Shown in pieces: positions 2,299 through 36,094 of a stretch of DNA of 64,000 bases. The number at the start of each line of letters is the position of its first letter. The first letter of the stretch is position 1. Below the pieces are notes generated by a model. It did no database searches. It saw only the letters and a program-made list of their open reading frames with translations, and was not told the DNA's origin. The position numbers and the translations under genes are program-made. The DNA comes from Escherichia coli (GTDB lineage: Bacteria; Pseudomonadota; Gammaproteobacteria; Enterobacterales; Enterobacteriaceae), in assembly GCF_044324785.1 (NCBI RefSeq), contig NZ_CP172128.1, one strand, 5' to 3'.

Positions 2299-3309
2299 TC
2301 AGGCGGAGGGAGCAAGCGTTGTCTTGCCAGGATGAAATTCCGGCTGCCAGAGTACTTGTAGCATTTCAGGTGAAACATTCGTGACCAGCTGGCGTATCAT
2401 GTCGGCAACCTGACGACCGACGCGATGTCGTGTTGACTGAAGAACTGCAGCCACATCCTGTTCAATAATACTGTCTTGCGGCAGACCATCATAAACCACA
2501 AGAGAGACGGCATCCTCTCCGGACAGATGACCGGATAACTGCAGCGACATGGCCGCGCCATCACCGATCAGGTCACTGTCGGTAATAATGGCCGTCGGGG
2601 GAAGCGGAAGTGACATTAACTCAGTCACTGCCTGGAAACCTGAGCGTCGGGTGGGAGAGACCCGGCGTAGCCAGGTCTCAGGCAGACCATGTTCACTCAG
2701 GGCATCGCGCCATCCCTGACGTCGTGCAGTGACATAGGTACGGGAGTTGTCCTCACTCAGCAGGGCAATTCGCTGATGGCCCAGGGCAATCAGGTGCTGT
2801 GTGGCCTGCCAGGTTCCTGCATGGTTATCAAAGTCAAACCAGGCACAGGGAAGACCGGACGGCACCTGACCGAGTGCCAGAAACGGAATACCGGCCTCCT
2901 GCAGGTGTGTAAGACGCGGGTCATTATCCAGCGTGTGCGCCACGATAAGGGCATCAACCCGGCGGCTTTCGACCAGACGCATATAGCTGTGGCTGTCAGC
3001 CCGTTCATCATCGGCTATCAGCAGTAAGTCAATATCATGGCGGGCCAGTTCCCGGCTGATACAACTGACCATATCCACAAACACACTACTGCTGAACAGT
3101 ACAGCATGTTCAGGGAAGACCAGGCCGACCGCATCGGTTTTACCGGTTTTGAGACGTCTTGCCAGGGTATTCGGGCGATAACCACGACGCCGAGCTTCCG
3201 CTTCTACACGTGCACGGGTCGAAGCGGAAACGTCCGAAAATCCGCCAAGCGCCCGGCTGACTGTGGTGACAGAGATCCCGAGTTCGGCGGCGATAGCCTT
3301 GAGTGACAT
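2299..3309 (-). CDS. rafR: LacI-family transcriptional repressor (raffinose repressor-like)
   Basis: 336-aa ORF; N-terminal HTH (LKAIAAELGISVTTVSRAL), periplasmic-binding-protein-like C-domain; adjacent to rafA. Confidence 0.75.
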   Translation of the reverse strand: MSLKAIAAELGISVTTVSRALGGFSDVSASTRARVEAEARRRGYRPNTLARRLKTGKTDAVGLVFPEHAVLFSSSVFVDMVSCISRELARHDIDLLLIADDERADSHSYMRLVESRRVDALIVAHTLDNDPRLTHLQEAGIPFLALGQVPSGLPCAWFDFDNHAGTWQATQHLIALGHQRIALLSEDNSRTYVTARRQGWRDALSEHGLPETWLRRVSPTRRSGFQAVTELMSLPLPPTAIITDSDLIGDGAAMSLQLSGHLSGEDAVSLVVYDGLPQDSIIEQDVAAVLQSTRHRVGRQVADMIRQLVTNVSPEMLQVLWQPEFHPGKTTLAPSA

Positions 3310-3643
3310 ATTTTCTCCTGCGGATAACTGAACAGCCCTGTCCCTGATGCGGGTGATCCGGGCAACAAACCTGACAGAGACGCCTGCATAAGTGGTCGCG
3401 CTGTACCAGTATGAGCCTCCATCATCCTGATTTGTGTATTAACTTTCAATACCGGAGGACGATTTGATTACCGGTTGTTAGCAGGAGTGCGAATATTAGA
3501 CCGACGGTGGAGATCTAAGACTCAGTGAGCATAGCGATACACTATATTACTGTAATTAAGCCAGTAAACTTCCTGTTCACTGGCTTAAACGCTAATGATG
3601 TATGCAGTTGAACAAGCTTTTAAACTAATGATTAATTGATATA

Positions 3644-4980
3644 TGAGCTGGCCCCCTGAAACACCAGACAGTAGATGTATCTTAAAATAAGAGGTAGGCT
3701 TGGATATATGTCTAACACTAGTTCTAATTTTGAGATGGCTGGCGTTTTGTTAGGAAAAGAGGTGCGTAAACGTAAAACACCTCAGGAAAAAATCACAATT
3801 ATTCAACAGACTATGGAGCCAGGCATGACGGTGTCTCACGTGGCGCGTTTGCATGGAATTCAGCCCAGCCTGTTGTTTAAGTGGAAAAAACAATACCAGG
3901 AAGGAAGTCTCACTGCTGTGGCTGCGGGTGAAGACGTTGTTCCTGCTTCTGAACTGGCCGCTGCGATAAAGCAGATTAATCAGCTTCAGCGTTTACTGGG
4001 CAAGAAAACAATGGAAGTTGAGCTCCTCAAAGAAGCGGTGGAGTACGCGCAATCGCGAAAATGGATAGCGCATGTGCCCTTGTTACCTTCGGACAAGGAA
4101 TAGCCCCGGTAAGCCGTGTTCTGGGCGTGTCGCGTGCGCAGTTAACATTACGGATGAAGGCATCTGATAACAAGACAGATAAACGGCGTCAGAGACGCGA
4201 TGAGGCTGCGGATGCAGAAGTCTTATCGCGCATCCTGGATATCATTGGCGATATGCCAACATATGGGTATCGCCGTGTCTGGGCGATACCCAGACGGCAG
4301 TCCCGAAATGAAGGCCTGCCGTTCGTGAATGCAAAACGCGTTTACCGGATAATGAGCGAAAACAGCCTGTTGTTGTTGCATGACAAACCATCACGACCTC
4401 AGCGGGCACATAAAGGCCGTGTAGAGGTTAATAAAAGCGACCAGCGTTGGTGTTCCAATGGCTTTGAGTTCGGTTGCGATGATGGCGAAAAAGTCCGGGT
4501 TACGTTCGCCCTGGACTGTTGCGATCGTGAAGCTATCGACTGGGCAGCCAGTACGGGAGGTTACGATAAATCGACAGTGCAGGATGTGATGTTAGGCGCG
4601 ATAGAAAAACGCTTTGGCGATAAAGTGCCGGAACAGTCGATCCAGTGGCTGACAGATAACGATTCAGCGTACAGAGCGCATGAAACACGGCAGTTCGCCA
4701 GAGAGCTGAATCTGGAGCCCTGTACGACGGCAGTCAGCAGTCCTCAGAGTAATGGAATGGCAGAACGGTTCGTGAAAACGATGAAGGAAGACTACATCGC
4801 GTTCATGCCGAAACCGAATGTAAGAACGGCAGTGCATAACCTTGCAGTGGCGATCGAGCATTATAACGAATGGCATCCGCATAGTGCACTGGGTTATCGC
4901 TCGCCACGGGAATATCTGCGGCAGCAGGCCAGTAATGGGTTAAGTGATAACAGGTGTCTGGAAATATAGGGGCAAATCCA
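3644..4980 (+). mobile_element. IS3-family insertion sequence, IS2-like variant (orfA 3675-4103, orfB 4061-4969)
   Basis: overlapping orfA/orfB typical of IS3 family; orfB C-terminus and right end (GGAAATATAGGGGCAAATCCA) identical to IS2; left end TGAGCTGGCCCCCTGAA resembles IS2 IRL; no clear target duplication. Confidence 0.7.
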
Positions 4981-5242
4981 CTGCTGATAATTTAAGTCTG
5001 GCACTAATGATTTTTAGCAATTTTGCGGGTGGGGATGATTTTTTATCCGGAGCAAACCCAATACTTTTCAGATAACAGAGAAGAGCGGCAAAACCAAACC
5101 GGCTGGCAGGTTTACGGTGAACATTGATAATTGCCAGATCCTGTTCACTGAAATACGTCATTCGAGTCAGTGTTAACTCATCGTCTGGTAATGCCAGTAA
5201 TGATTCTTTTTCCGACTGCGAAAGAATCTGCCTCCTTGCCAT
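4981..5242 (-). pseudogene. tnpA: Tn21/Tn3-family transposase TnpA, N-terminal ~87 codons only (truncated by IS2-like element)
   Basis: translation MARRQILSQSEKESLLALPDDEL... matches the conserved N-terminus of Tn21-subfamily TnpA; ORF runs into the IS right end at 4980. Confidence 0.6.
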
Positions 5243-5408
5243 ATAGCCTTCCTTGTAAATTATTTAGTGCGTTATTTTTGATTAAAAAGTTATTGTATAA
5301 GGGTATACCCTGATGCAATAGACAAAACGTGACAGCACTCCAATAATGACATAACCTATATGCGATAGAATAAATGCAATAATCTAAACGCGATAGCGTG
5401 GTAGAAAA
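5243..5408. promoter_or_regulatory. putative res site / divergent promoter region between tnpA and resolvase
   Basis: AT-rich 166-bp divergent intergenic region with repeated GCGATAG motifs; position equivalent to res in Tn3-type modules. Confidence 0.3.
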
Positions 5409-6050
5409 ATGTTCATCAGAGCTTATTTAAGGGCATCGACAGAAGATCAGTTCGCCGATCGGGCAAAAGAGATGCTGGAGCAGTTCGTTCAGGAGCGGGG
5501 GCATAAAATCGCCAGCTACTACCGGGAGAACATCAGCGGCACAAAACTAGACCGCCCGGAACTGGGACGCTTACTGATGGACAGTCATCGCAATGATATC
5601 TTGCTGGTCGAGCAGATAGACCGCCTGACCCGTCTTAGCAACAGTGACTGGATAACGCTGAAAAAGCAGATAGAACAACACGAGTTGCGGATTGTCAGTC
5701 TTGATGTGCCCACATCATGGCAGGCTCTGTCAGATAAAGATCCTTCGCAAGCGGACCCGATCACCCGCACAGTAATAACCGCAATAAATAATATGCTTAT
5801 CGACCTGATGGCTGCAATGTCGCATAAAGACTGGCTGAGTCGTCGTCAACGACAAAAACAGGGAATTGAACGTGCCCATACTTTAGGTAAGTATCGGGGC
5901 AAACAGGCAGATCGGGAACGACATCAGAAAGTAATGTACTACCGGCAGATCAAGAAACTGAGCATCCGTGAAACGGCAGAGGTGACAGGCTATAGTACTT
6001 CCCAAGTTTGTCGCATTCAGGCGCTCTATAAAGAGGTTAAACCTGATTAA
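5409..6050 (+). CDS. serine recombinase (resolvase/invertase family)
   Basis: 213 aa; N-terminal catalytic motif YLRASTEDQ with Ser10; C-terminal HTH region; divergent from tnpA fragment. Confidence 0.7.
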   Translation: MFIRAYLRASTEDQFADRAKEMLEQFVQERGHKIASYYRENISGTKLDRPELGRLLMDSHRNDILLVEQIDRLTRLSNSDWITLKKQIEQHELRIVSLDVPTSWQALSDKDPSQADPITRTVITAINNMLIDLMAAMSHKDWLSRRQRQKQGIERAHTLGKYRGKQADRERHQKVMYYRQIKKLSIRETAEVTGYSTSQVCRIQALYKEVKPD

Positions 6051-6058
6051 AAAATAGC

Positions 6059-6096
6059 CTTAACGTACAATATTTTCCGTTTCCCAAACGGAGCCC
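6059..6096. repeat. Tn21-type 38-bp terminal inverted repeat
   Basis: reverse complement GGGCTCCGTTTGGGAAACGGAAAATATTGTACGTTAAG: GGG outer end, ACGGAAAATA core, TAAG inner end. Confidence 0.55.
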
Positions 6097-6579
6097 AAGA
6101 AGACGGCCGGCGGGCGGAATACGGCACGCTACCTGGGTCGTTATCTGAAGAAGCCACCAATAGCGGCTTCCCGGCTGGCACATTACAACGGAGGGGCGAG
6201 CCTGAGCTTCCGTTACCTGGACCACAAAACGGGAGAGACAGCGACGGAAACGCTGACGCAGCGTGAGCTGGTCGCGAGGATGAAACAGCACATCCCGGAG
6301 AAGTTTTTTAAGATGGTGAGGTACTTCGGGTTCCTTGCCAACCGGGGGTGTGGAGAGAAGCTGCCGCAGGTGTACCGAGCTCTGGGGATGGATAAACCGG
6401 AACCGGTGGCGAAAGTGTGCTATGCACAAATGGTGAAACAGTTCCTGAGTCGTGACCCGTTCGAATGCGTGCTGTGTGGCAGCCGGATGGTATACCGCCG
6501 GGCCCTTGCGGGGCTGAATGTATCAGGGCTGAAGAAAAACGCGCGGGATATCAGTCTGCTGAGGTATGTGCCGGCCTGA
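6097..6579 (+). pseudogene. IS91-family transposase, C-terminal fragment
   Basis: in-frame translation ...YLGRYLKKPPIAASRLAHYNG...VRYFGFLANRG... resembles IS91-family transposase C-termini; 5' part replaced by the Tn21-type IR. Confidence 0.5.
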
Positions 6580-7309
6580 TACAGGGTAAGTGTGTCAGCA
6601 ATCCGGGGAAAGGATAAAAAACCCCATCCGCAGTATAAAAACCGACCACGCAGAGAGAAAAAACACCGGCGTGATGTGAAAAACAGCTTACCGCACGAGG
6701 CATAAGACGCGGACAGTGGTATCGCTTAGTTTTTCAATTTCCTATACGTGAACAGACCAATTTTGCATTCGCCGTCCAGGAGTTTGAGGGGAAAGTAGTC
6801 AGTGTTTTACGCTCAGTCAGGGAAAGTGTGCAATGATAAATGACACGAAAGGAATCGTAGCACATGGGCACCGCGATTCAATATTCAAGGAAAACACAAT
6901 ACAGCAATGTACTTGTTCTGTTTCTATTATTCTAGCGATTTCAATAAAGGCACTTGCTCGCGCTCTGTCATTTTCTGAAACTCTTCATGCTGCATTTCGA
7001 TTTTCCTTCTAAGATCATAACTCGCATACCTGTTCTTTTTATGTATATCCATATCTATTTTTGTGACGAGTTCAAACCACAATGTTCGCACTCCCCATGC
7101 AGCGTTATGAAACATTTCCGCAACGGCTAGTCTGTATTAACTGCTTCGGTCATGTAGTCGCTAATACGTTCAGCGGTAATTTTCGTTATTTCATCGTAAT
7201 TCATTTTATCTCCTACAAGATTATTTAATGGAATGAAAAATATCTGGCCTGATAATAATGTTCCAGAATTAATATCTGCAGGCTATGTTAAGTTGTCCCC
7301 ACACACAAT

Positions 7310-7585
7310 CTACCTGTTTTCTCGTGTGTGCCACAGGCGCAATACATAAATAGTCTGGCCATTAAGTTCGTAACGGATTTCGTACTCGCCAGCAAAAATC
7401 CGTCTGACCTCCCTGGGTTCAAACTGAAACAACTGTTCTCCCATACGTGGATGAGTTAACAGAATGACCGGTGCCTGTGTCAGGGACTGCACCGTTCTGG
7501 CGGCCGCAGGTTTACTGGCCAGCACCAGAAAATCATATAACCGCGCCAAATCAGAAAGCGCCTTACTGGTCCACTTCAGTTCCAT
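7310..7585 (-). CDS. type II toxin, RelE/ParE family
   Basis: 91 aa, RelE/ParE-like size and C-terminal basic residues; start overlaps stop of upstream small RHH-type ORF. Confidence 0.7.
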   Translation of the reverse strand: MELKWTSKALSDLARLYDFLVLASKPAAARTVQSLTQAPVILLTHPRMGEQLFQFEPREVRRIFAGEYEIRYELNGQTIYVLRLWHTRENR

Positions 7586-7869
7586 CAGCGTGGCACCGGT
7601 AACGGATTGTCAGTACTGAGGCTGTCCGCCCAGGCCTGTACAGCCTGATGGTCGATAACCTGTCCGGATTTCACATCGTCCAGGGCTTCCAGCGTCAGGC
7701 GATTACGCTCCTCCTCCTGGGCAAGCCATGCAGAAAGCGCCTGTTTGATAACCCAGCCCCGGGAGCGTTCCAGTCTGGCGGCCATCTGGTCGACTTTATC
7801 AGCCATTGGTAATGGCACATGCGCGGTAATGACTTTTGTTGCCTGTGCGGTATTGTTTTTCATTTGCAT
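7585..7869 (-). CDS. type II antitoxin (ribbon-helix-helix, ParD/CopG-like)
   Basis: 94 aa, directly upstream of and overlapping the toxin gene. Confidence 0.6.
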   Translation of the reverse strand: MQMKNNTAQATKVITAHVPLPMADKVDQMAARLERSRGWVIKQALSAWLAQEEERNRLTLEALDDVKSGQVIDHQAVQAWADSLSTDNPLPVPR

Positions 7870-7925
7870 ACCCGATTAGTTGTTAATCATATTTAATCAT
7901 AGTGATTACTTTCAGACGGAACAAG

Positions 7926-9631
7926 GCAAATAATGCGCGTCAGCGCATGTAAGGCGGCACTCCGTTGTTGCATATGGCACAGGAGTAAAACCGCCGAAGC
8001 CCGGCGTAAGCCGGTACTGACTGATAGATTTCACCTTACCCATCCCCAGCCCTTGTATGTAATAGGACTCGATGGCTAGCTACCATCATATGAAGCAGAG
8101 TGAGCTTGTCCCAGCCCTGAACAGTCAGACTTTGATTAGCAGCAAAAGCCCTCTGCTTCACCTTTCACGCCAGCATTAACATTGAACGGTTGCCAAGAGC
8201 GATGACTCTGCATGTACAAGGGGAATAGGCGTGATGGTTTGGTGAAAGGAGAATATTCATGTTTCAGTTAGGTATTGATGTCAGCAAGAAAACGCTGGAT
8301 TTGTGCCTGCTGCGCGAAGGCGTAAAAGGCAGAGTTAAAACCCGAAAGCTTCAGAATGATATTAATGCTGTCAGCGCGGTAATAGCCTGGCTCAGTAAGC
8401 AACATTGTAAACCTGAAGATGTCCATATCATCATGGAAGCCACTGGTGTTTATCATGAATCACTGGCTTACGGGCTTCACAAAGCCGGGGGCCGGATATC
8501 ACTTGCCAACCCACACAGGGCAAGAGAGTTTGCCCGGGGTATGGGAATGCTGACCAAAAATGACCGGGTTGATGCTTATATGCTGGCTTGCTATGGCGTG
8601 CTTAAAGCACCGGAGCCATGGCTTCCTCCACCGGAAGAAGTCCGCCATCTCAGTGCACTGCTCCGCAGACGTGATGCTCTTGTGGCTGACAGTACTCGCG
8701 AAAAAAACAGGCTGGAAAAATACCTGGCAACAGACACACCTTCTGTTATAGCTGAATCCGTAGAGGCAATGATTGGTCAGTTGAACGCAGAAATTAAACG
8801 TCTGGACAGACTGATCCGTTCACACCTTAACCAGCATCCTGAATTAAAAAAGGATTTTGACCTGCTGACGTCAATAAAATCCGTAGGTTATCAGTTAGGT
8901 CTGAATATGCTTGTCATCCTGCGGAGCCATGATTTCGCCACAGCAGAACAGGTGGCTGCATTTTTAGGTGTCGTTCCCGTTGAAAAATATTCCGGCACCT
9001 CGGTCAGAGGGTGTCCGAAACTGTCAAAAATTGGTCCGCCGGAAATCCGGGCGAAACTGTATCTGGCTTCGTTGTGTGGTCTGAGATTTAACCCATTGAT
9101 GAAAGCGATGTATGAGCGATTATGCCTGAGAGGTAAGGGCAAAATGTGTGCCATTGGTGCGCTGATGAGAAAACTCGTGCACTGGTGCTATGGCGTACTG
9201 AAGACCCAAAAACCGTTTGATGTGGGCTATTTGCCTTCATATGCGCGTAGCGCATGTAAGGCGGCATGATGTAGTTACATATGGTACAGGAGTAAAACCG
9301 CCGAAGCCCGGCGTAAGCCGGTACGTATTGATAGGTTTCACCTATCCCATCCCTGCCCTGCGAGGCCATACGGGCTTTCAGCGATGATGAAGTATAGGTA
9401 AGCCCTTTTAACCCCGTTAGCGCGGCTATGCCGCGCTGTATCGGGGACTTAGTGCTGACAGCTTGCTGGCAGTACTTAGGGGGCTGTACGTCGGAGTTCA
9501 AGCGATTTTTCTTGACAGAACACGGTAGCTGCTAAGCCATACCCGCTTTCAGCCATGAGAGAGCTTCTGTGCGCGGTCGGAGTGGTCCCGACGAGGGTTT
9601 ACCCGAAGTCGGGACGTATCTCCGCGTTAGC
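7926..9631 (+). mobile_element. IS110-family insertion sequence (boundaries uncertain)
   Basis: contains the IS110-type transposase; ~100-bp imperfect direct repeats at 7926-8040 and 9240-9345; highly structured non-coding tail 9270-9631. Confidence 0.4.
8259..9269 (+). CDS. IS110-family transposase (DEDD-type recombinase)
   Basis: 336 aa, N-terminal MFQLGIDVSKKTLDLCLL characteristic of IS110/IS1111 transposases. Confidence 0.8.
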   Translation: MFQLGIDVSKKTLDLCLLREGVKGRVKTRKLQNDINAVSAVIAWLSKQHCKPEDVHIIMEATGVYHESLAYGLHKAGGRISLANPHRAREFARGMGMLTKNDRVDAYMLACYGVLKAPEPWLPPPEEVRHLSALLRRRDALVADSTREKNRLEKYLATDTPSVIAESVEAMIGQLNAEIKRLDRLIRSHLNQHPELKKDFDLLTSIKSVGYQLGLNMLVILRSHDFATAEQVAAFLGVVPVEKYSGTSVRGCPKLSKIGPPEIRAKLYLASLCGLRFNPLMKAMYERLCLRGKGKMCAIGALMRKLVHWCYGVLKTQKPFDVGYLPSYARSACKAA

Positions 9632-9699
9632 GGGGTCAGTTTGGAATTCGGAAAATAAACCATGTTAAGACTATTTTTTAGCCAAAGGGCTTTCAGGAA

Positions 9700-9840
9700 T
9701 CGCCAGAATGGCGGGACAACAGTGGTTTTGGTGTCCGAAATCGACCGGTTTCGGACATTGTTAAACAGATATATCCGAAAGTCAGCGAAATTACTTTCGG
9801 ACATGCATTATAATATGTACACCCATTTCGTACAGAAGAT
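9700..9840. promoter_or_regulatory. res-site-like repeats upstream of tnpR
   Basis: palindromic subsites TGTCCGAAATCGACCGGTTTCGGACA and CCGAAAGTCAGCGAAATTACTTTCGGACA. Confidence 0.45.
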
Positions 9841-9846
9841 CTCACT

Positions 9847-10437
9847 ATGTCTCGAATTTTTGCCTATTGTCGGGTTTCCACTCTGGAACAGACGACCGAA
9901 AATCAACGTCGGGAAATCGAAAGCGCGGGTTTTAACGTCAGACCCCAACGAATAATCGAAGAACAAATTAGTGGATCAGTAGCAGCCAGTGAACGTCCAG
10001 GTTTTAACCGGTTGCTTGATCGTCTGGAAAGTGGCGATGTATTGATAGTCACAAAACTGGATCGCCTCGGTCGTAATGCAATGGATATCAGGAAAACAGT
10101 GGAGCAACTGACCGAATCTGGCATCAGGGTACATTGCCTGGCATTAGGTGGTGTTGATCTGACCAGTCCGGCAGGAAAAATGACAATGCAAGTGATTTCA
10201 GCGGTCGCTGAATTTGAACGAGATCTTTTACTTGAACGAACTTATTCAGGGATAGCAAGAGCACGGGATGCAGGAAAACGTTTTGGTCGCCCACCGGTAT
10301 TAAATGAAGAACAAAAACAGAAGGTACTCGAACACATTAAGTCTGGGGGAAGTATAAGTGCTATTGCCAGGGAATTCCGAACCACACGGCAAACAATTCT
10401 GAGAGTTAGAGCGAAACAGCAAACTGTTACTGTATAG
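9847..10437 (+). CDS. tnpR: serine resolvase TnpR
   Basis: 196 aa; catalytic N-terminus [11 protein letters not shown]; C-terminal HTH; Tn3-family resolvase architecture. Confidence 0.8.
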
Positions 10438-10483
10438 AAAATAGTCTTAGCGTGGGATATTTTCCGTTTTCCAAGCGGACCCC

Positions 10484-10680
10484 AAGGAAGACTACATCGC
10501 GTTCATGCCGAAACCGAATGTAAGAACGGCATTGCATAATCTTGCAGTGGCGATCGAACATTACAATGAAAACCATCCGCACAGTGCGTTGGGTTATCGC
10601 TCTCCGCGAGAATATCGACGTCAGCGGGTAACATTAACTTAAGATACAACCCCTGTCTGGAAATAAGGGGGCAAGAACAC
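10484..10680 (+). pseudogene. 3' fragment of IS2-like orfB transposase with right-end remnant
   Basis: near-identical at nucleotide level to 4785-4980 of the IS2-like element; begins abruptly at the mini-element IR. Confidence 0.55.
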
Positions 10681-10791
10681 ATTGACACTGTAAATATGGC
10701 ATTGTATAAAACCCCGCGATAATAATGAGTTTCATTTGCATTACTCCCATTTGCTGGTCATCCACTCGCCTGTTTACAAGGATAGCGTTTA

Positions 10792-11790
10792 ATGAAGAAG
10801 GTCCTTTGCGCGTTAGGCTTGATGTTCACCGCCGTCAGTTCCGCGCTGGCAACAACCTACCCCCTGACGATTGAAAACTGCGGCTATCAGGAGACCTTCA
10901 CCCGGCCGCCGGAGCGCGTGGTCGCGCTGGGGCAAAATACGGTCGAAATTCTGCTGCTGCTCGGGCTGCAAAAGCAGGTGGTCGCCAGCGCCTTCTGGCC
11001 GACCAGCGTTTTACCGCAGCTGGCTGAGCAAAACGCGAAGATTAAAACCTTGACGGTGGAAATTCCGAGCCTGGAATCGGTGCTGGCGCAAAATCCTGAT
11101 TTCGTTCCCGCCCAGTTGCCGCTGCTGCTGGGGCCGGAAAGCAAAGTCGCCAGGCGTGAAGATCTCGCCACCGTCGGCGTGAACAGCTACGTCTCACCGG
11201 GGGTGTGCGCCACCAAAAAGGCCACCGGCGATATGTACGGCAGCCGGCAAAAGCTGTGGGATATGACCTGGCTGTATCAGGAAATTAGCGATTTTTCCCG
11301 CATTTTCAACGTCGAAGATCGTGGTCAGGCGCTGATTGCCGATTTCAAAAAACGTGAAGCCGACCTGCGCCAGGAGTTTGGTAAAAGCAAAAAGGATCTC
11401 TCCTTCGTCTTCTGGTTCTCCAGCGCCTCACCTTCGGCCGATGCCTATGTCGGCGGCAAAAACAGCGCCTCCGGATTTATCGCCAGCGTGCTGGGCGGAC
11501 ATAATGCGATTACCTCCGAAACCGAGTGGCCCACGGTGAGCTGGGAGAGCATTATTGCCGCCAACCCGGATGTGATCGTGGTCGCCAGCCTGGATCGTAA
11601 CCGCTGGGCGCTGGATAAAGCCGAGGAGAAGATCAAATTCCTCAAAAGCGATCCCGCCGTCAGCCAGCTGGAGGCGGTGAAAAAAGGCCATATCGTGGTC
11701 ATGGACGGTCAGGCGATGAATCCGACCATTCGCACGCTTTACGGAGCGGAGCAGGTGGGCGAGCAGCTGAGAAAAATGGGGCTGAACTGA
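10792..11790 (+). CDS. ABC transporter periplasmic substrate-binding protein (iron/siderophore type)
   Basis: 332 aa with signal peptide; followed by FecCD-type permease and ATPase genes. Confidence 0.7.
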   Translation: MKKVLCALGLMFTAVSSALATTYPLTIENCGYQETFTRPPERVVALGQNTVEILLLLGLQKQVVASAFWPTSVLPQLAEQNAKIKTLTVEIPSLESVLAQNPDFVPAQLPLLLGPESKVARREDLATVGVNSYVSPGVCATKKATGDMYGSRQKLWDMTWLYQEISDFSRIFNVEDRGQALIADFKKREADLRQEFGKSKKDLSFVFWFSSASPSADAYVGGKNSASGFIASVLGGHNAITSETEWPTVSWESIIAANPDVIVVASLDRNRWALDKAEEKIKFLKSDPAVSQLEAVKKGHIVVMDGQAMNPTIRTLYGAEQVGEQLRKMGLN

Positions 11791-17192: not shown

Positions 17193-18523
17193 TAGACTGG
17201 CCCCCTGAATCTCCAGACAACCAATATCACTTAAATAAGTGATAGTCTTAATACTAGTTTTTAGACTAGTCATTGGAGAGCAGATGATTGATGTCTTAGG
17301 ACCGGAGAAACGCAGACGGCGTACTACACAGGAAAAGATCGCTATTGTTCAGCAGAGTTTTGAACCGGGAATGACGGTCTCCCTTGTTGCCCGGCAACAC
17401 GGTGTGGCAGCCAGCCAGTTATTTCTCTGGCGCAAGCAATACCAGGAGGGAAGTCTTACTGCTGTGGCCGCAGGAGAGCAGGTCGTTCCTGCCTCTGAAC
17501 TTGCTGCTGCCATGAAGCAGATTAAAGAACTCCAGCGCCTGCTCGGCAAAAAAACGATGGAAAATGAACTCCTTAAAGAAGCCGTTGAATACGGGCGTGC
17601 AAAAAAGTGGATAGCGCACGCGCCCTTATTGCCCGGGGATGGGGAGTAAGCTTAGTCAGCCGTTGTCTCCGGGTGTCGCGTGCGCAGTTGCACGTAATTC
17701 TCAGACGAACCGATGACTGGAAAGATGGTCGCCGCAGCCGTCACTCAGATGATACGGATGTGCTTCTCCGTATACACCATGTTATCGGAGAGCTGCCCAC
17801 GTATGGTTATCGTCGGGTATGGGCGCTGCTTCGCAGACAGGCCGAACTTGATGGTATGCCTGCGATCAATGCCAAACGTGTTTACCGGATCATGCGCCAG
17901 AATGCGCTGTTGCTTGAGCGAAAAACCGCTGTACCGCCATCGAAACGGGCACATACTGGCAAAGTGGCCGTGAAAGAAAGCAATCAACGATGGTGCTCTG
18001 ACGGGTTCGAGTTCCGCTGTGATAACGGAGAAAAACTGCGAGTCACGTTCGCGCTGGACTGCTGTGACCGTGAGGCACTGCACTGGGCAGTCACTACGGG
18101 CGGCTTCGACAGTGAAACAGTACAGGACGTCATGCTGGGAGCGGTGGAACGCCGCTTCGGCAACGAGCTTCCGGCGTCTCCAGTAGAGTGGCTGACGGAT
18201 AATGGTTCATGCTACCGGGCTAATGAAACACGGCAGTTTGCCCGGATGTTGGGGCTTGAACCGAAGAACACGGCGGTGCGGAGTCCGGAGAGTAACGGCA
18301 TAGCAGAGAGCTTCGTGAAAACGATAAAGCGTGACTACATCAGTATCATGCCTAAACCAGACGGGTTAACGGCAGCAAAGAACCTTGCAGAGGCGTTCGA
18401 GCATTATAACGAATGGCATCCGCATAGTGCACTGGGTTATCGCTCGCCACGGGAATATCTGCGGCAGCAGGCCAGTAATGGGTTAAGTGATAACAGGTGT
18501 CTGGAAATATAGGGGCAAATCCA
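17193..18523 (+). mobile_element. IS2 copy 1 (insC 17284-17649, insD 17607-18512)
   Basis: 1331 bp, IRL TAGACTGGCCCCCTGAATCTCCAGACAACC, right end ...GGGGCAAATCCA; 5-bp target duplication TTTTG on both sides. Confidence 0.9.
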
Positions 18524-34763: not shown

Positions 34764-36094
34764 TAGACTGGCCCCCTGAATCTCCAGACAACCAATATCA
34801 CTTAAATAAGTGATAGTCTTAATACTAGTTTTTAGACTAGTCATTGGAGAGCAGATGATTGATGTCTTAGGACCGGAGAAACGCAGACGGCGTACTACAC
34901 AGGAAAAGATCGCTATTGTTCAGCAGAGTTTTGAACCGGGAATGACGGTCTCCCTTGTTGCCCGGCAACACGGTGTGGCAGCCAGCCAGTTATTTCTCTG
35001 GCGCAAGCAATACCAGGAGGGAAGTCTTACTGCTGTGGCCGCAGGAGAGCAGGTCGTTCCTGCCTCTGAACTTGCTGCTGCCATGAAGCAGATTAAAGAA
35101 CTCCAGCGCCTGCTCGGCAAAAAAACGATGGAAAATGAACTCCTTAAAGAAGCCGTTGAATACGGGCGTGCAAAAAAGTGGATAGCGCACGCGCCCTTAT
35201 TGCCCGGGGATGGGGAGTAAGCTTAGTCAGCCGTTGTCTCCGGGTGTCGCGTGCGCAGTTGCACGTAATTCTCAGACGAACCGATGACTGGAAAGATGGT
35301 CGCCGCAGCCGTCACTCAGATGATACGGATGTGCTTCTCCGTATACACCATGTTATCGGAGAGCTGCCCACGTATGGTTATCGTCGGGTATGGGCGCTGC
35401 TTCGCAGACAGGCCGAACTTGATGGTATGCCTGCGATCAATGCCAAACGTGTTTACCGGATCATGCGCCAGAATGCGCTGTTGCTTGAGCGAAAAACCGC
35501 TGTACCGCCATCGAAACGGGCACATACTGGCAAAGTGGCCGTGAAAGAAAGCAATCAACGATGGTGCTCTGACGGGTTCGAGTTCCGCTGTGATAACGGA
35601 GAAAAACTGCGAGTCACGTTCGCGCTGGACTGCTGTGACCGTGAGGCACTGCACTGGGCAGTCACTACGGGCGGCTTCGACAGTGAAACAGTACAGGACG
35701 TCATGCTGGGAGCGGTGGAACGCCGCTTCGGCAACGAGCTTCCGGCGTCTCCAGTAGAGTGGCTGACGGATAATGGTTCATGCTACCGGGCTAATGAAAC
35801 ACGGCAGTTTGCCCGGATGTTGGGGCTTGAACCGAAGAACACGGCGGTGCGGAGTCCGGAGAGTAACGGCATAGCAGAGAGCTTCGTGAAAACGATAAAG
35901 CGTGACTACATCAGTATCATGCCTAAACCAGACGGGTTAACGGCAGCAAAGAACCTTGCAGAGGCGTTCGAGCATTATAACGAATGGCATCCGCATAGTG
36001 CACTGGGTTATCGCTCGCCACGGGAATATCTGCGGCAGCAGGCCAGTAATGGGTTAAGTGATAACAGGTGTCTGGAAATATAGGGGCAAATCCA
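34764..36094 (+). mobile_element. IS2 copy 2
   Basis: ORFs identical to copy 1; 5-bp target duplication CCTGT on both sides. Confidence 0.9.

Follow-up and report, generated by a model that had tools for sequence, protein, structure and literature searches.

In Tn3 and Tn1000, the transposase gene tnpA and the resolvase gene tnpR are divergent, with res lying between them and their promoters probably located inside res (PMC7157771). Members of the Tn21/Tn501 subgroup carry the colinear order res-tnpR-tnpA (PMC7157771), a layout that the Tn21 copy of R100 shows, too. TnEc1 has been described as a cargo-less Tn3-family element of E. coli plasmids, and Tn7489 as a cargo-bearing relative (bioRxiv 10.1101/2022.09.12.507718). 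Among the small serine recombinases, Sin-like systems act at a res composed of an inverted site I and a direct-repeat regulatory site II, and Sin-type resolvases are thought to stabilise plasmids via dimer resolution (PMC2428073).

Here, we describe a locus in which fragments of such elements adjoin one another. It lies within a stretch of 64,000 nucleotides from Escherichia coli (contig NZ_CP172128.1), hereafter the window, to which all unqualified coordinates refer. The locus is an ordinary scar: a TnEc1-like stub inside a broken IS91-family gene, bounded by a hybrid IS2-type insertion sequence (IS). Its host is a mosaic poultry E. coli plasmid of the IncK2/Z type, near-identical to pLH10-b-1-A, on which the locus is very probably an immobile relic of successive mobile-element events. 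The transposon-derived DNA (4981-6096) corresponds to the right-hand 1116 bp, or the last 29%, of a 3875-bp cargo-less Tn3-family transposon that is found intact in E. albertii. Aligned over 1118 bp, the DNA shares 99.0% of its positions with the intact transposon, although the alignment reaches 6098, running past the terminal inverted repeat (IR) by one base shared by chance. A preliminary description had reported a truncated Tn21-family module over 4981-6579, and the tnpA N-terminus, res, resolvase gene and single IR that it named were all recovered. Each of its named elements is present, with matches that are beyond chance as judged by sequence comparison; the transposon part, however, ends at 6096 rather than at 6579. 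An Rfam scan of 3000-11000 on both strands revealed no RNA family, and two minus-strand open reading frames (6037-6429, 130 aa; 5585-5770) were taken as spurious, being antisense to well-supported genes or fragments.

The truncated tnpA (4982-5242, minus strand) comprises codons 1-87 of 995, approximately half of the N-terminal DUF4158 domain. When the 995-aa TnpA of E. albertii pESA135_2 was compared with the window by tblastn, its first 87 residues aligned at 5242-4982 with 98.9% identity; the N-terminal similarity, on which the preliminary description had allowed its reading to stand or fall, thus survives formal alignment. The stub scores against Pfam DUF4158 (E=1e-16) and the NCBIfam Tn3 transposase model (E=3e-11), remaining under the cut-off of the latter because it is a fragment, while the intact relative reaches 1145 bits against transpos_Tn3 and contains both Pfam domains (DUF4158 and DDE_Tnp_Tn3). 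By these profiles, the stub is a Tn3-family transposase by descent, and the copy here lacks the catalytic domain. Comparison with the native sequence identified base 4981 as the first base of tnpA codon 88, and read-through from the stub into the IS end creates a 100-aa fusion ORF (4940-5242).

Whole-plasmid searches were performed on the closest public relative (NZ_CP100531.1, reconstructed whole). The window is collinear with pLH10-b-1-A at an identity of at least 99.9% but has two extra IS copies of ~1.33 kb, and because of these additional ISs the searches speak for the closest relative. The 3' part of tnpA, which the preliminary description had proposed to seek elsewhere on the plasmid, is absent from both the window and this closest complete plasmid: tblastn with residues 88-995 gave no match at E<1 in either, and blastn with the whole 3875-bp transposon returned, beyond the stub, only IR-like matches of 33-55 bp. 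The IR of the tnpA end is also missing from the window and the closest complete plasmid. The record of the latter contains an unrelated degenerate solo IR ~32 kb away. Elsewhere, in p720632_86, the same tnpA has been truncated independently by IS2 at another position.

At the tnpR end, the terminal IR (6059-6096, minus strand; 38 bp, GGGCTCCGTTTGGGAAACGGAAAATATTGTACGTTAAG read inward) is identical to either IR of the intact 3875-bp copies and continues imperfectly to ~47-48 bp (to ~6049). The flanks of the two intact E. albertii copies do not match (CTCTG/AATAT and AATAT/TGATA), and the AATAT common to both suggests flank exchange between them.

Assignment of this module to the Tn21 family, as first proposed, suits some of its parts and not others. 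The TnpA is 56% identical to the Tn21 TnpA of R100 over its full length, versus 28% to the Tn1000 TnpA (pairwise comparisons), and the IR matches that of Tn21 at 27 of 38 positions, including AAACGGAAAATA and the terminal TAAG. The resolvase, in contrast, is only 26% identical to the Tn21 TnpR and has 213 aa where the latter has 186, and res also differs. Instead of following the colinear res-tnpR-tnpA order, the two genes point away from res, tnpA on the minus strand and tnpR on the plus strand, as in Tn3/Tn1000. The Tn21 TnpA of R100 itself carries the PGAP label 'TnAs3 family'. The features of the TnEc1 group were found throughout: the cargo-less structure IR-tnpA<-res->tnpR-IR without passenger genes, a resolvase of ~213-222 aa, a res conserved motif for motif, and near-identical extended IRs (~47 bp in TnEc1; 32 of the 38 IR positions shared with the TnEc1 family). 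These comparisons were made against a copy labelled 'TnEc1 family' by PGAP rather than the ISfinder TnEc1 reference. Because the TnEc1-family TnpA is only 76% identical to that of the transposon here, the latter is regarded as a distinct TnEc1 relative and not as TnEc1 itself.

The resolvase gene tnpR (5409-6050, plus strand) is intact and encodes a 213-aa small serine recombinase (Pfam Resolvase, E=6e-21; HTH_23) with the motifs YLRAS(10)TEDQ and DRLTR and a C-terminal HTH. The protein, WP_052897785.1, is common to the plasmid record and the intact E. albertii copies, so that stub and intact transposons encode identical resolvases, and it is 92% identical to a resolvase located beside a PGAP 'TnEc1 family' transposase (213 versus 222 aa). 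Its best relative of solved structure is Sin/Bin3 (2r0q; 209 aa; E=5e-6 over residues 4-185), whereas the gamma-delta and Tn3 resolvases match only at ~1e-4, and identity to the Tn1000 resolvase (29%) is confined to the first 99 aa. The catalytic Ser10 and DRLTR align to Sin, which is similar in size and alignable over nearly its full length, but the sequence similarity at that E value is weak. The resolvase had at first been considered longer than a typical TnpR and atypically placed beside the IR; this view is not borne out, as TnEc1 relatives have resolvases of 213-222 aa and a tnpR that ends 8 bp from the IR. Because the intact copies and the TnEc1 relatives consist of IR-tnpA<-res->tnpR-IR only, the placement of the resolvase next to the IR is native. 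A second resolvase gene is present in the window at 9847-10437, and a site-specific integrase is annotated in the closest public plasmid record.

Between the two divergent genes lies a 166-bp segment (5243-5408) that is inferred, from alignment together with motif and promoter scans, to contain res and the divergent promoter region. Candidate site I consists of two 9-mers in inverted orientation (5290-5298 and 5313-5321) around the centre GGGTA|TACCC, and is accompanied by four predicted direct 9-mers (consensus ATGCGATAA) that start at 5346, 5360, 5374 and 5388 with an exact period of 14 bp. A scan for the motif yielded 6 sites, where shuffled sequences would give 0.77, and the motifs are conserved across 7 aligned family members. 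A sigma-70-like promoter, TAGACA-17-AATAAT, is predicted at 5319-5347 in the orientation of tnpR. Within the inferred site I, the copy described here shows a private C-to-T substitution in the left half, at a column in which the six other aligned copies all have C. A res of the Tn3/gamma-delta type was considered and ruled out, as there is one inverted pair only and the remaining repeats are direct; Tn3/Tn1000 res has three inverted-repeat subsites, in contrast to the direct-repeat accessory motifs of the res inferred here. The res of Sin and the beta recombinase likewise combines one inverted site with directly repeated half-sites, which here are suggested by the motifs. The Sin-like res, however, has a single direct-repeat pair rather than four repeats at a 14-bp period, and the Sin-like system includes a site for an architectural protein, whereas no HU/IHF site was identified in the present segment. 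An intact serine recombinase gene stands beside a conserved 166-bp repeat region, the putative internal res and cognate resolvase of a Tn3-family element.

With one IR and no transposase, the remnant is unable to transpose. As far as its sequence indicates, it retains all of the cis-acting res region as well as an intact resolvase gene, and its sole remaining activity could be site-specific recombination at res. If this res is active, the resolvase would regulate its own expression and resolve dimers of the plasmid, or the site would recombine with further copies of itself. Whether the tnpR-res stub has been retained (domesticated) as a multimer-resolution cassette that stabilises the large plasmid is therefore worth considering, and such a role would account for the intactness of tnpR and res beside a broken tnpA; nevertheless, we regard it as unlikely. 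In favour of such a role, the resolvase ORF is unbroken and encodes the same protein as the intact transposons, and the predicted res motifs are present, but the remnant has diverged from the intact copies by only 1%, such that intactness may merely reflect youth. Several PLSDB matches list a recombinase without a Tn3 transposase; because PLSDB gene tables omit pseudogenes, however, these rows amount to an unfair count. The independently truncated copy in p720632_86 still has a resolvase gene, together with the portion of res nearest to tnpA, and a plasmid-stabilising role has been ascribed to Sin-type resolvases (PMC2428073), whereas the plasmid studied here possesses the other recombinases mentioned above (the second resolvase and, in the closest record, the integrase), and the private substitution of the stub falls within its inferred site I. 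A broader proposal, which must be considered decidedly doubtful, is that the TnEc1-group resolvase and res form an uncharacterised Sin-like system, comprising a single palindromic crossover site and four direct repeats in 14-bp phase, in a transposon with a Tn21-related transposase, and that large enterobacterial plasmids retain stubs of such transposons because these act as independent dimer-resolution cassettes once tnpA has been lost.

On its left, the stub is bounded by a 1337-bp IS2-group element of the IS3 family (3644-4980, plus strand), which contains orfA (3675-4103) and orfB (4061-4969). This IS is a hybrid of an ISEc48-like body (3644-~4858) and an IS2-derived right end of 117 bp (4864-4980). 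All discriminating positions up to 4853 are ISEc48-like, while from 4864 onward 33 of 35 agree with the IS2 of plasmid F, and the crossover lies within the 10 bp shared by both elements (4854-4863). Over 4864-4980, 112 of 117 positions are identical to IS2, versus 79 of 117 for the ISEc48-like element. Where compared, the body shows 100% identity to its ISEc48-like counterpart in pLH50-c-A, with one mismatch in 3250-3950; it is ~96% identical to elements labelled ISEc48 family by PGAP and ~69% identical to IS2. The best NCBIfam matches are the IS2 OrfA and OrfB models, both under their cut-offs. With IS2, whose ends and 5-bp target-site duplication were verified on plasmid F, the element shares its terminal sequences, the arrangement of orfA and orfB, and a right end reading ...GGGGCAAATCCA. 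The copy here nevertheless departs from IS2 (1331 bp, with IS2 left and right inverted repeats and a 5-bp duplication), as only its last ~117 bp are IS2; it is a chimera of IS2 and ISEc48 without a target duplication. The left flank reads ATATA and the right flank CTGCT, and no duplication was found with the left boundary set at any plausible position (3620, 3634 or 3644). The left flank is a LacI-type regulator of the raf operon and not tnpA. An exact match to the hybrid junction occurs in four PLSDB records only, all of which contain the whole structure. Recognition of this layer as an ISEc48-like::IS2 recombinant adds to what was seen in the preliminary description, in which tnpA was said to be cut by an IS2-like element. 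That gene does end at an IS2-type right end, but the absence of a duplication, the raf flank on the left and the chimeric nature of the IS speak against a simple insertion; taken together, they identify the left junction as the product of IS-IS recombination and deletion.

These observations also bear on a plain three-layer nesting, in which the transposon entered the IS91-family gene, one IS2-like element entered tnpA, and nothing more took place. The right-hand junctions at 4980|4981 (IS end) and 6096|6097 (IR) are both as clean as such nesting would have them, and disruption of the same tnpA by IS2 does recur, at another position, in p720632_86. However, nesting predicts tnpA from codon 88 onward and a 5-bp duplication to the left of the IS, where raf DNA and the unequal flanks ATATA/CTGCT are found instead; a search of the complete closest relative revealed neither the remainder of tnpA nor the IS91 N-terminus; and the IS combines two different elements. 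This simpler account is thus highly improbable.

To the right of the IR lies the 3' part of an IS91-family (IS1294-like) transposase gene (6097-6579, plus strand), consisting of the C-terminal 160 codons and the stop codon, with IS91-like DNA extending to ~6752. The fragment matches NCBIfam transpos_IS91 (E=9e-30, positions 229-355 of 356) and Pfam Y2_Tnp (E=9e-26), i.e., the C-terminal profile part of an HUH/Y2 rolling-circle transposase. An intact 390-aa gene of pAPEC-O1-ColBM shares 99.8% identity with it (breakpoint L005 3999|4000); the uninterrupted gene is found in the same context, at 99.8% identity, in that plasmid and six others, and DNA identity to IS1294 and ISSbo1 copies is ~91-93%. 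The N-terminal ~230 codons are missing, and the truncated gene, judged from its sequence, cannot be functional. In contrast to IS1294 and ISSbo1, the gene is cut here by the transposon IR and its N-terminal part has gone from the plasmid: neither the window nor NZ_CP100531.1 contains that part, the only match being an 85%-identical stretch of another element. As originally described, the 38-bp IR interrupts the IS91-family gene, with IS91 homology starting at the base directly after the IR (6096|6097) and the outermost IR base abutting codon 230.

Elements of the IS91 family are known to transpose in a one-ended manner and to rearrange the DNA next to them. An origin of the IR|IS91 junction in such rolling-circle (one-ended) activity, or in a deletion, rather than in transposon insertion is scarcely credible despite this family trait and a TGAA-flanked 223-bp indel at the opposite end of the IS91 copy, as the break falls inside the gene (codon 230) and not at an IS91 terminus, and its position is exactly that of the outermost base of a perfect 38-bp IR, a precision that is the signature of transposon insertion.

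The history of successive insertion and recombination that we favour comprises three steps. In the first, to which the comparison with uninterrupted relatives attests, a 3.9-kb cargo-less TnEc1 relative entered the transposase gene of an element of the IS91 family situated in a ColBM/ColV-type virulence segment (IS91 - relE/parE - resolvase - sitABCD), yielding the precise IR|IS91 junction at 6096|6097. In the second, likewise evident from comparison, an IS2-type right end broke tnpA after codon 87. In the third, homologous recombination within the 10-bp stretch would have joined a raf-side ISEc48-like element to IS2, producing the hybrid IS and connecting the raf (raffinose) operon region to the tnpA stub; this step would have removed both the first ~230 IS91 codons and a 2.76-kb portion of the transposon containing tnpA codons 88-995 along with the second IR. 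The chimera itself is observed; the order of events is inferred.

One predicted intermediate would read raf - ISEc48-like - TCTGC - complete IS2 - CTGCTGATAA (tnpA stub). A similar arrangement exists in the sibling plasmid pLH50-c-A, where the same raf flank and ISEc48-like body, the latter with its own right end, are followed by TCTGC and then IS2, and native tnpA at the breakpoint reads AAAGC-TCTGC-TGATAA, which contains TCTGC. The register is off by one from a perfect 5-bp IS2 duplication (CCA|CTGCT seen, CCA|TCTGC expected), and pLH50-c-A is no direct ancestor because its IS91 copy is intact. A 500-bp synthetic query representing the predicted ancestral left junction (IS91 N-terminal part, the expected 5-bp duplication AAGAA, tnpA-end IR) had both halves covered in 0 of 72,556 plasmid records. 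Two E. albertii plasmids match across the crossover region at 95.5%, and a naturally mosaic IS lineage thus remains conceivable.

Outside plasmid archaeology, the significance of this locus is small. Within it, the locus marks the left boundary at which a ColBM/ColV-type virulence segment (sit iron/manganese uptake and neighbours) is joined to a raffinose/sucrose catabolism region, a join made by IS-IS recombination and not by insertion. For annotation, an apparent "IS2-like insertion" may turn out to be chimeric, with two ISs as its parents, and a resolvase gene beside the IR is the normal state of cargo-less TnEc1-type transposons.

Every element named in the preliminary description of this locus is real, as judged by profile matches and comparison of the terminal inverted repeat (IR). 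An IS2-group insertion sequence lies at 3644-4980 on the plus strand (orfA 3675-4103, orfB 4061-4969); its top models are NCBIfam IS2 OrfA and OrfB, both under their own cut-offs. Next come codons 1-87 of tnpA, a Tn3-family transposase gene (4982-5242, minus strand; Pfam DUF4158, E=1e-16; NCBIfam transpos_Tn3, E=3e-11), a 166-bp intergenic region (5243-5408), a gene for a 213-aa serine recombinase (tnpR, 5409-6050, plus strand; Pfam Resolvase, E=6e-21), a 38-bp Tn3-family terminal IR (6059-6096), and, at 6097-6579 on the plus strand, the final 160 codons of an IS91-family transposase gene (E=9e-30 against positions 229-355 of the 356-position NCBIfam profile). The transposon-derived DNA amounts to 1116 bp (4981-6096). 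While the observation is confirmed, its interpretation is only partly supported and needs correcting as to the native layout, the Tn21 label, and the left junction. Read-through of the tnpA stub into the IS2 end generates a 100-aa ORF (4940-5242, minus strand) consisting of 87 aa of the TnpA N-terminus and 13 residues encoded by the IS; the ORF, which contains just half of the DUF4158 domain, is still positioned downstream of the putative res promoters.

The closest public plasmid is E. coli pLH10-b-1-A (NZ_CP100531.1; 169 kb), which originates from pooled poultry faeces in Switzerland, is typed as IncK2/Z, and has an IncFII-type repA annotated at the start of its record. It is 100% identical to 4700-6800 and collinear with the whole window at 99.9% or more, apart from two extra IS copies. 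These IS3-family (IS2-group) copies (17196-18523 and 34764-36094), each of ~1.33 kb and ~71% identical to the IS at 3644-4980, are missing in NZ_CP100531.1, and the window thus comes from a slightly different relative. The 2.1-kb structure is also present at 99.9% identity in OY754359, OY757114, and OY757127 (hen or E. coli plasmids); it is already in public records under generic annotation, and all of its components are known families.

Two complete copies of the transposon, 3875 bp each, are found in the Escherichia albertii plasmid pESA135_2 (NZ_CP070283.2) and contain only an IR, a leftward tnpA (995 aa), an intergenic region, a rightward tnpR, and an IR. The resolvase (WP_052897785.1) is the same protein in the window and the intact copies, and the stub is 99.0% identical to the intact transposon over 1118 aligned bp (98.9% over TnpA aa 1-87). 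Because tnpR in the intact element stops 8 bp from the IR, the supposedly atypical placement of the resolvase gene is in fact the native layout. The length of the resolvase, also remarked upon, is likewise native to the clade: E. coli pSCU-172-2, pChi7122-2, and a copy with the PGAP label "TnEc1 family" all show an identical layout, with resolvases of 213-222 aa. Identity to this last copy is 92% for TnpR and 76% for TnpA, with IR agreement at 32 of 38 positions. TnEc1 has been described as a Tn3-family element that lacks cargo genes and has 47-bp IRs (bioRxiv 10.1101/2022.09.12.507718); the present element is related to it but distinct, and TnpA proteins at least 95% identical to its own occur in only five PLSDB records. 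One of the two pESA135_2 copies interrupts a traI-like gene. Their flanks are CTCTG/AATAT and AATAT/TGATA, and the occurrence of AATAT at opposite ends suggests a flank swap by recombination between the copies.

Assignment of the module to the Tn21 family holds for the transposase and the IR but not for the resolution module. Mosaicism between these modules is familiar in the Tn3 family. TnpA of Tn21 from R100 (PGAP name "TnAs3 family") is 56% identical to that of the element over its full length, compared with only 28% for TnpA of Tn1000 from F, and the Tn21 IR has 27 of 38 positions in common with that of the element. In contrast, Tn21 TnpR is just 26% identical to the resolvase (gamma-delta resolvase reaches 29% over the first 99 residues), and tnpA and tnpR diverge from res, whereas Tn21-subgroup elements, including the R100 layout, have colinear genes with res upstream of tnpR (PMC7157771).

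The tnpA stub had further been described as cut by an IS2-like element. The terminus at 4980 is an IS2 end (...GGGGCAAATCCA), but the left junction is not that of a simple insertion. No target duplication surrounds it (flanks ATATA versus CTGCT; on plasmid F, used as a check, the IS2 ends were confirmed, with a 5-bp duplication, CCCGC), and on its left stands not tnpA but the regulator end of a raf-type operon. The raf flank is shared by pLH50-c-A (NZ_CP100501.1), a sibling plasmid from the same study as pLH10-b-1-A, whose ISEc48-like element matches the window IS at 100% up to 4863 but retains a right end of its own (...GGGGTCAAGAACA) that differs from the window's; beyond it come TCTGC and an IS2, in that order. 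In the window IS, all discriminating positions up to 4853 are of the ISEc48-like type, whereas 33 of 35 in 4864-4980 are of the IS2 type (identity 112/117 to IS2 of F versus 79/117 to the ISEc48-like element), and the parentage switches within 10 shared bases. This sharp switch marks the IS as a recombinant; its left junction arose when two ISs recombined, not through simple insertion, which adds a fourth layer to the locus. Only four plasmids, all with the whole structure, have this exact hybrid junction, and two E. albertii plasmids match across it at 95.5%.

The TCTGC between the two ISs of pLH50-c-A is also what native tnpA reads at the breakpoint (AAAGC-TCTGC-TGATAA), which suggests a common ancestor in which an ISEc48-like end already abutted the tnpA stub; IS2 would then have landed 5 bp from that end, and the two ISs would have recombined to yield the window arrangement. 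Because TCTGC misses a perfect IS2 duplication by one base, this reconstruction is considered likely but unproven. An independent event of like kind is found in E. coli p720632_86 (NZ_CP025846.1, ~2440-2890), where the same tnpA is cut short by the right end of a genuine IS2 at a point 147 bp nearer its start than in the window; the resolvase gene is retained. In pAV54_F (NZ_OQ344286.1, ~1385-2760), an ISEc48 copy has an identical 15 bp, CTCAAAATTATTATG, on each side, far longer than the 5-bp IS2 duplication on F.

At the other end of the stub, pAPEC-O1-ColBM and six other plasmids carry the 390-aa IS91-family gene uninterrupted, in the same context of relE/parE toxin-antitoxin genes, a resolvase gene, and sitABCD. 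The window is 99.8% identical to pAPEC-O1-ColBM over 6097-6752, with homology beginning one base past the IR (3999|4000 in the pAPEC-O1-ColBM segment compared); the IR/IS91 boundary is a transposon-insertion junction within codon 230. Neither the window nor the closest complete plasmid contained the part of this IS91 copy that encodes the N-terminus, and the predicted other junction between transposon and IS91 gene had 0 PLSDB records. The rest of tnpA was likewise sought elsewhere on the plasmid, and TnpA aa 88-995 gave no match at E<1 in the window or the whole of NZ_CP100531.1. The remaining similarities to the transposon in these two sequences are IR-like only, namely one on each side (9632-9680 and 10435-10483) of a second resolvase gene in the window and, ~32 kb upstream in NZ_CP100531.1 and outside the window, a degenerate solo IR beside a gamma-delta-like IR. 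At ~3018-3090 of NZ_CP100531.1, outside the window, two solo Tn3-family IRs stand back to back without a transposon interior, a gamma-delta-like one (GGGGTTTGAGGGCCAATGGAACGAAAGCGTACGGTAAG) and, immediately after it, a TnEc1-like one (GGGCTCCGTTTGGGAAACGGACAATATTGTACGG).

Several neighbouring features were also noted. Directly after the IS91-family end, 223 bp (6753-6975) bounded on both sides by TGAA are missing in pAPEC-O1-ColBM, which could be a small deletion in that lineage. An IS110-family element (8054-9528; transposase 8259-9269), inserted relative to pAPEC-O1-ColBM, has the relE/parE-RHH toxin-antitoxin pair on one side and the second resolvase on the other. The latter (196 aa; 9847-10437) belongs to an 852-bp miniature Tn3-family-like element without transposase (9632-10483), which has two 49-nt inverted repeats of GGGGTCAGTTTGGAATTCGGAAAATAAACCATGTTAAG type (82% complementary) at its ends and, besides the resolvase gene, encloses nothing but a res-like region that carries TGTCCGAAA/TTTCGGACA repeats; it is also present in pAPEC-O1-ColBM, adjoining sitABCD. 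Against its outer IR lies an ISEc48-like right-end fragment (10484-10680; ...GGGGCAAGAACA), 82% identical to 4784-4975, making this the second Tn3-type IR in the window with an IS2-group end directly against it.

The solved structure nearest to the stub's resolvase is Sin/Bin3 (2r0q; E=5e-6, residues 4-185 aligned), with gamma-delta and Tn3 resolvase structures reaching ~1e-4 only, over the N-terminal 100 residues only; Sin aligns with it at nucleophile S10 (YLRASTEDQ), at DRLTR, and at the helix-E motif. Alignment of the intergenic regions of seven family members (84-99% identical overall) revealed strong conservation of a block immediately 5' of tnpR, together with a conserved palindrome, TTATYGCATAAGGGTAYACCCTGAYGC.ATA. 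Scanning for the 9-mer ATGCGATAA (two mismatches or fewer) located six sites versus 0.77 expected in shuffles: an inverted pair (5290-5298 and 5313-5321; centre GGGTA|TACCC), taken to be the putative crossover site I, and four direct copies starting at 5346, 5360, 5374, and 5388 with an exact 14-bp period. The window copy has a private C-to-T change in the left half of this candidate site, in a column where C is invariant among the remaining six copies of the alignment. A single inverted site with direct repeats after it is closer to Sin-like res than to the three inverted subsites of Tn3/gamma-delta (PMC2428073), and the putative res, as read from its motifs, resembles the former. A promoter scan placed a sigma-70-like TAGACA-17-AATAAT (5319-5347) facing tnpR and overlapping the 9-mer sites; this predicted promoter would fit autoregulation as known for Tn3 (PMC7157771).

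The stub, having a single IR and lacking a transposase, is immobile. At just 1% divergence from the intact copies, it may be under selection or may simply not have decayed yet. Judging by its sequence, it appears to retain all parts needed for site-specific recombination in cis, and its sole remaining activity would plausibly be resolvase expression from the predicted res promoters and recombination at res, serving dimer resolution or recombination with other copies.
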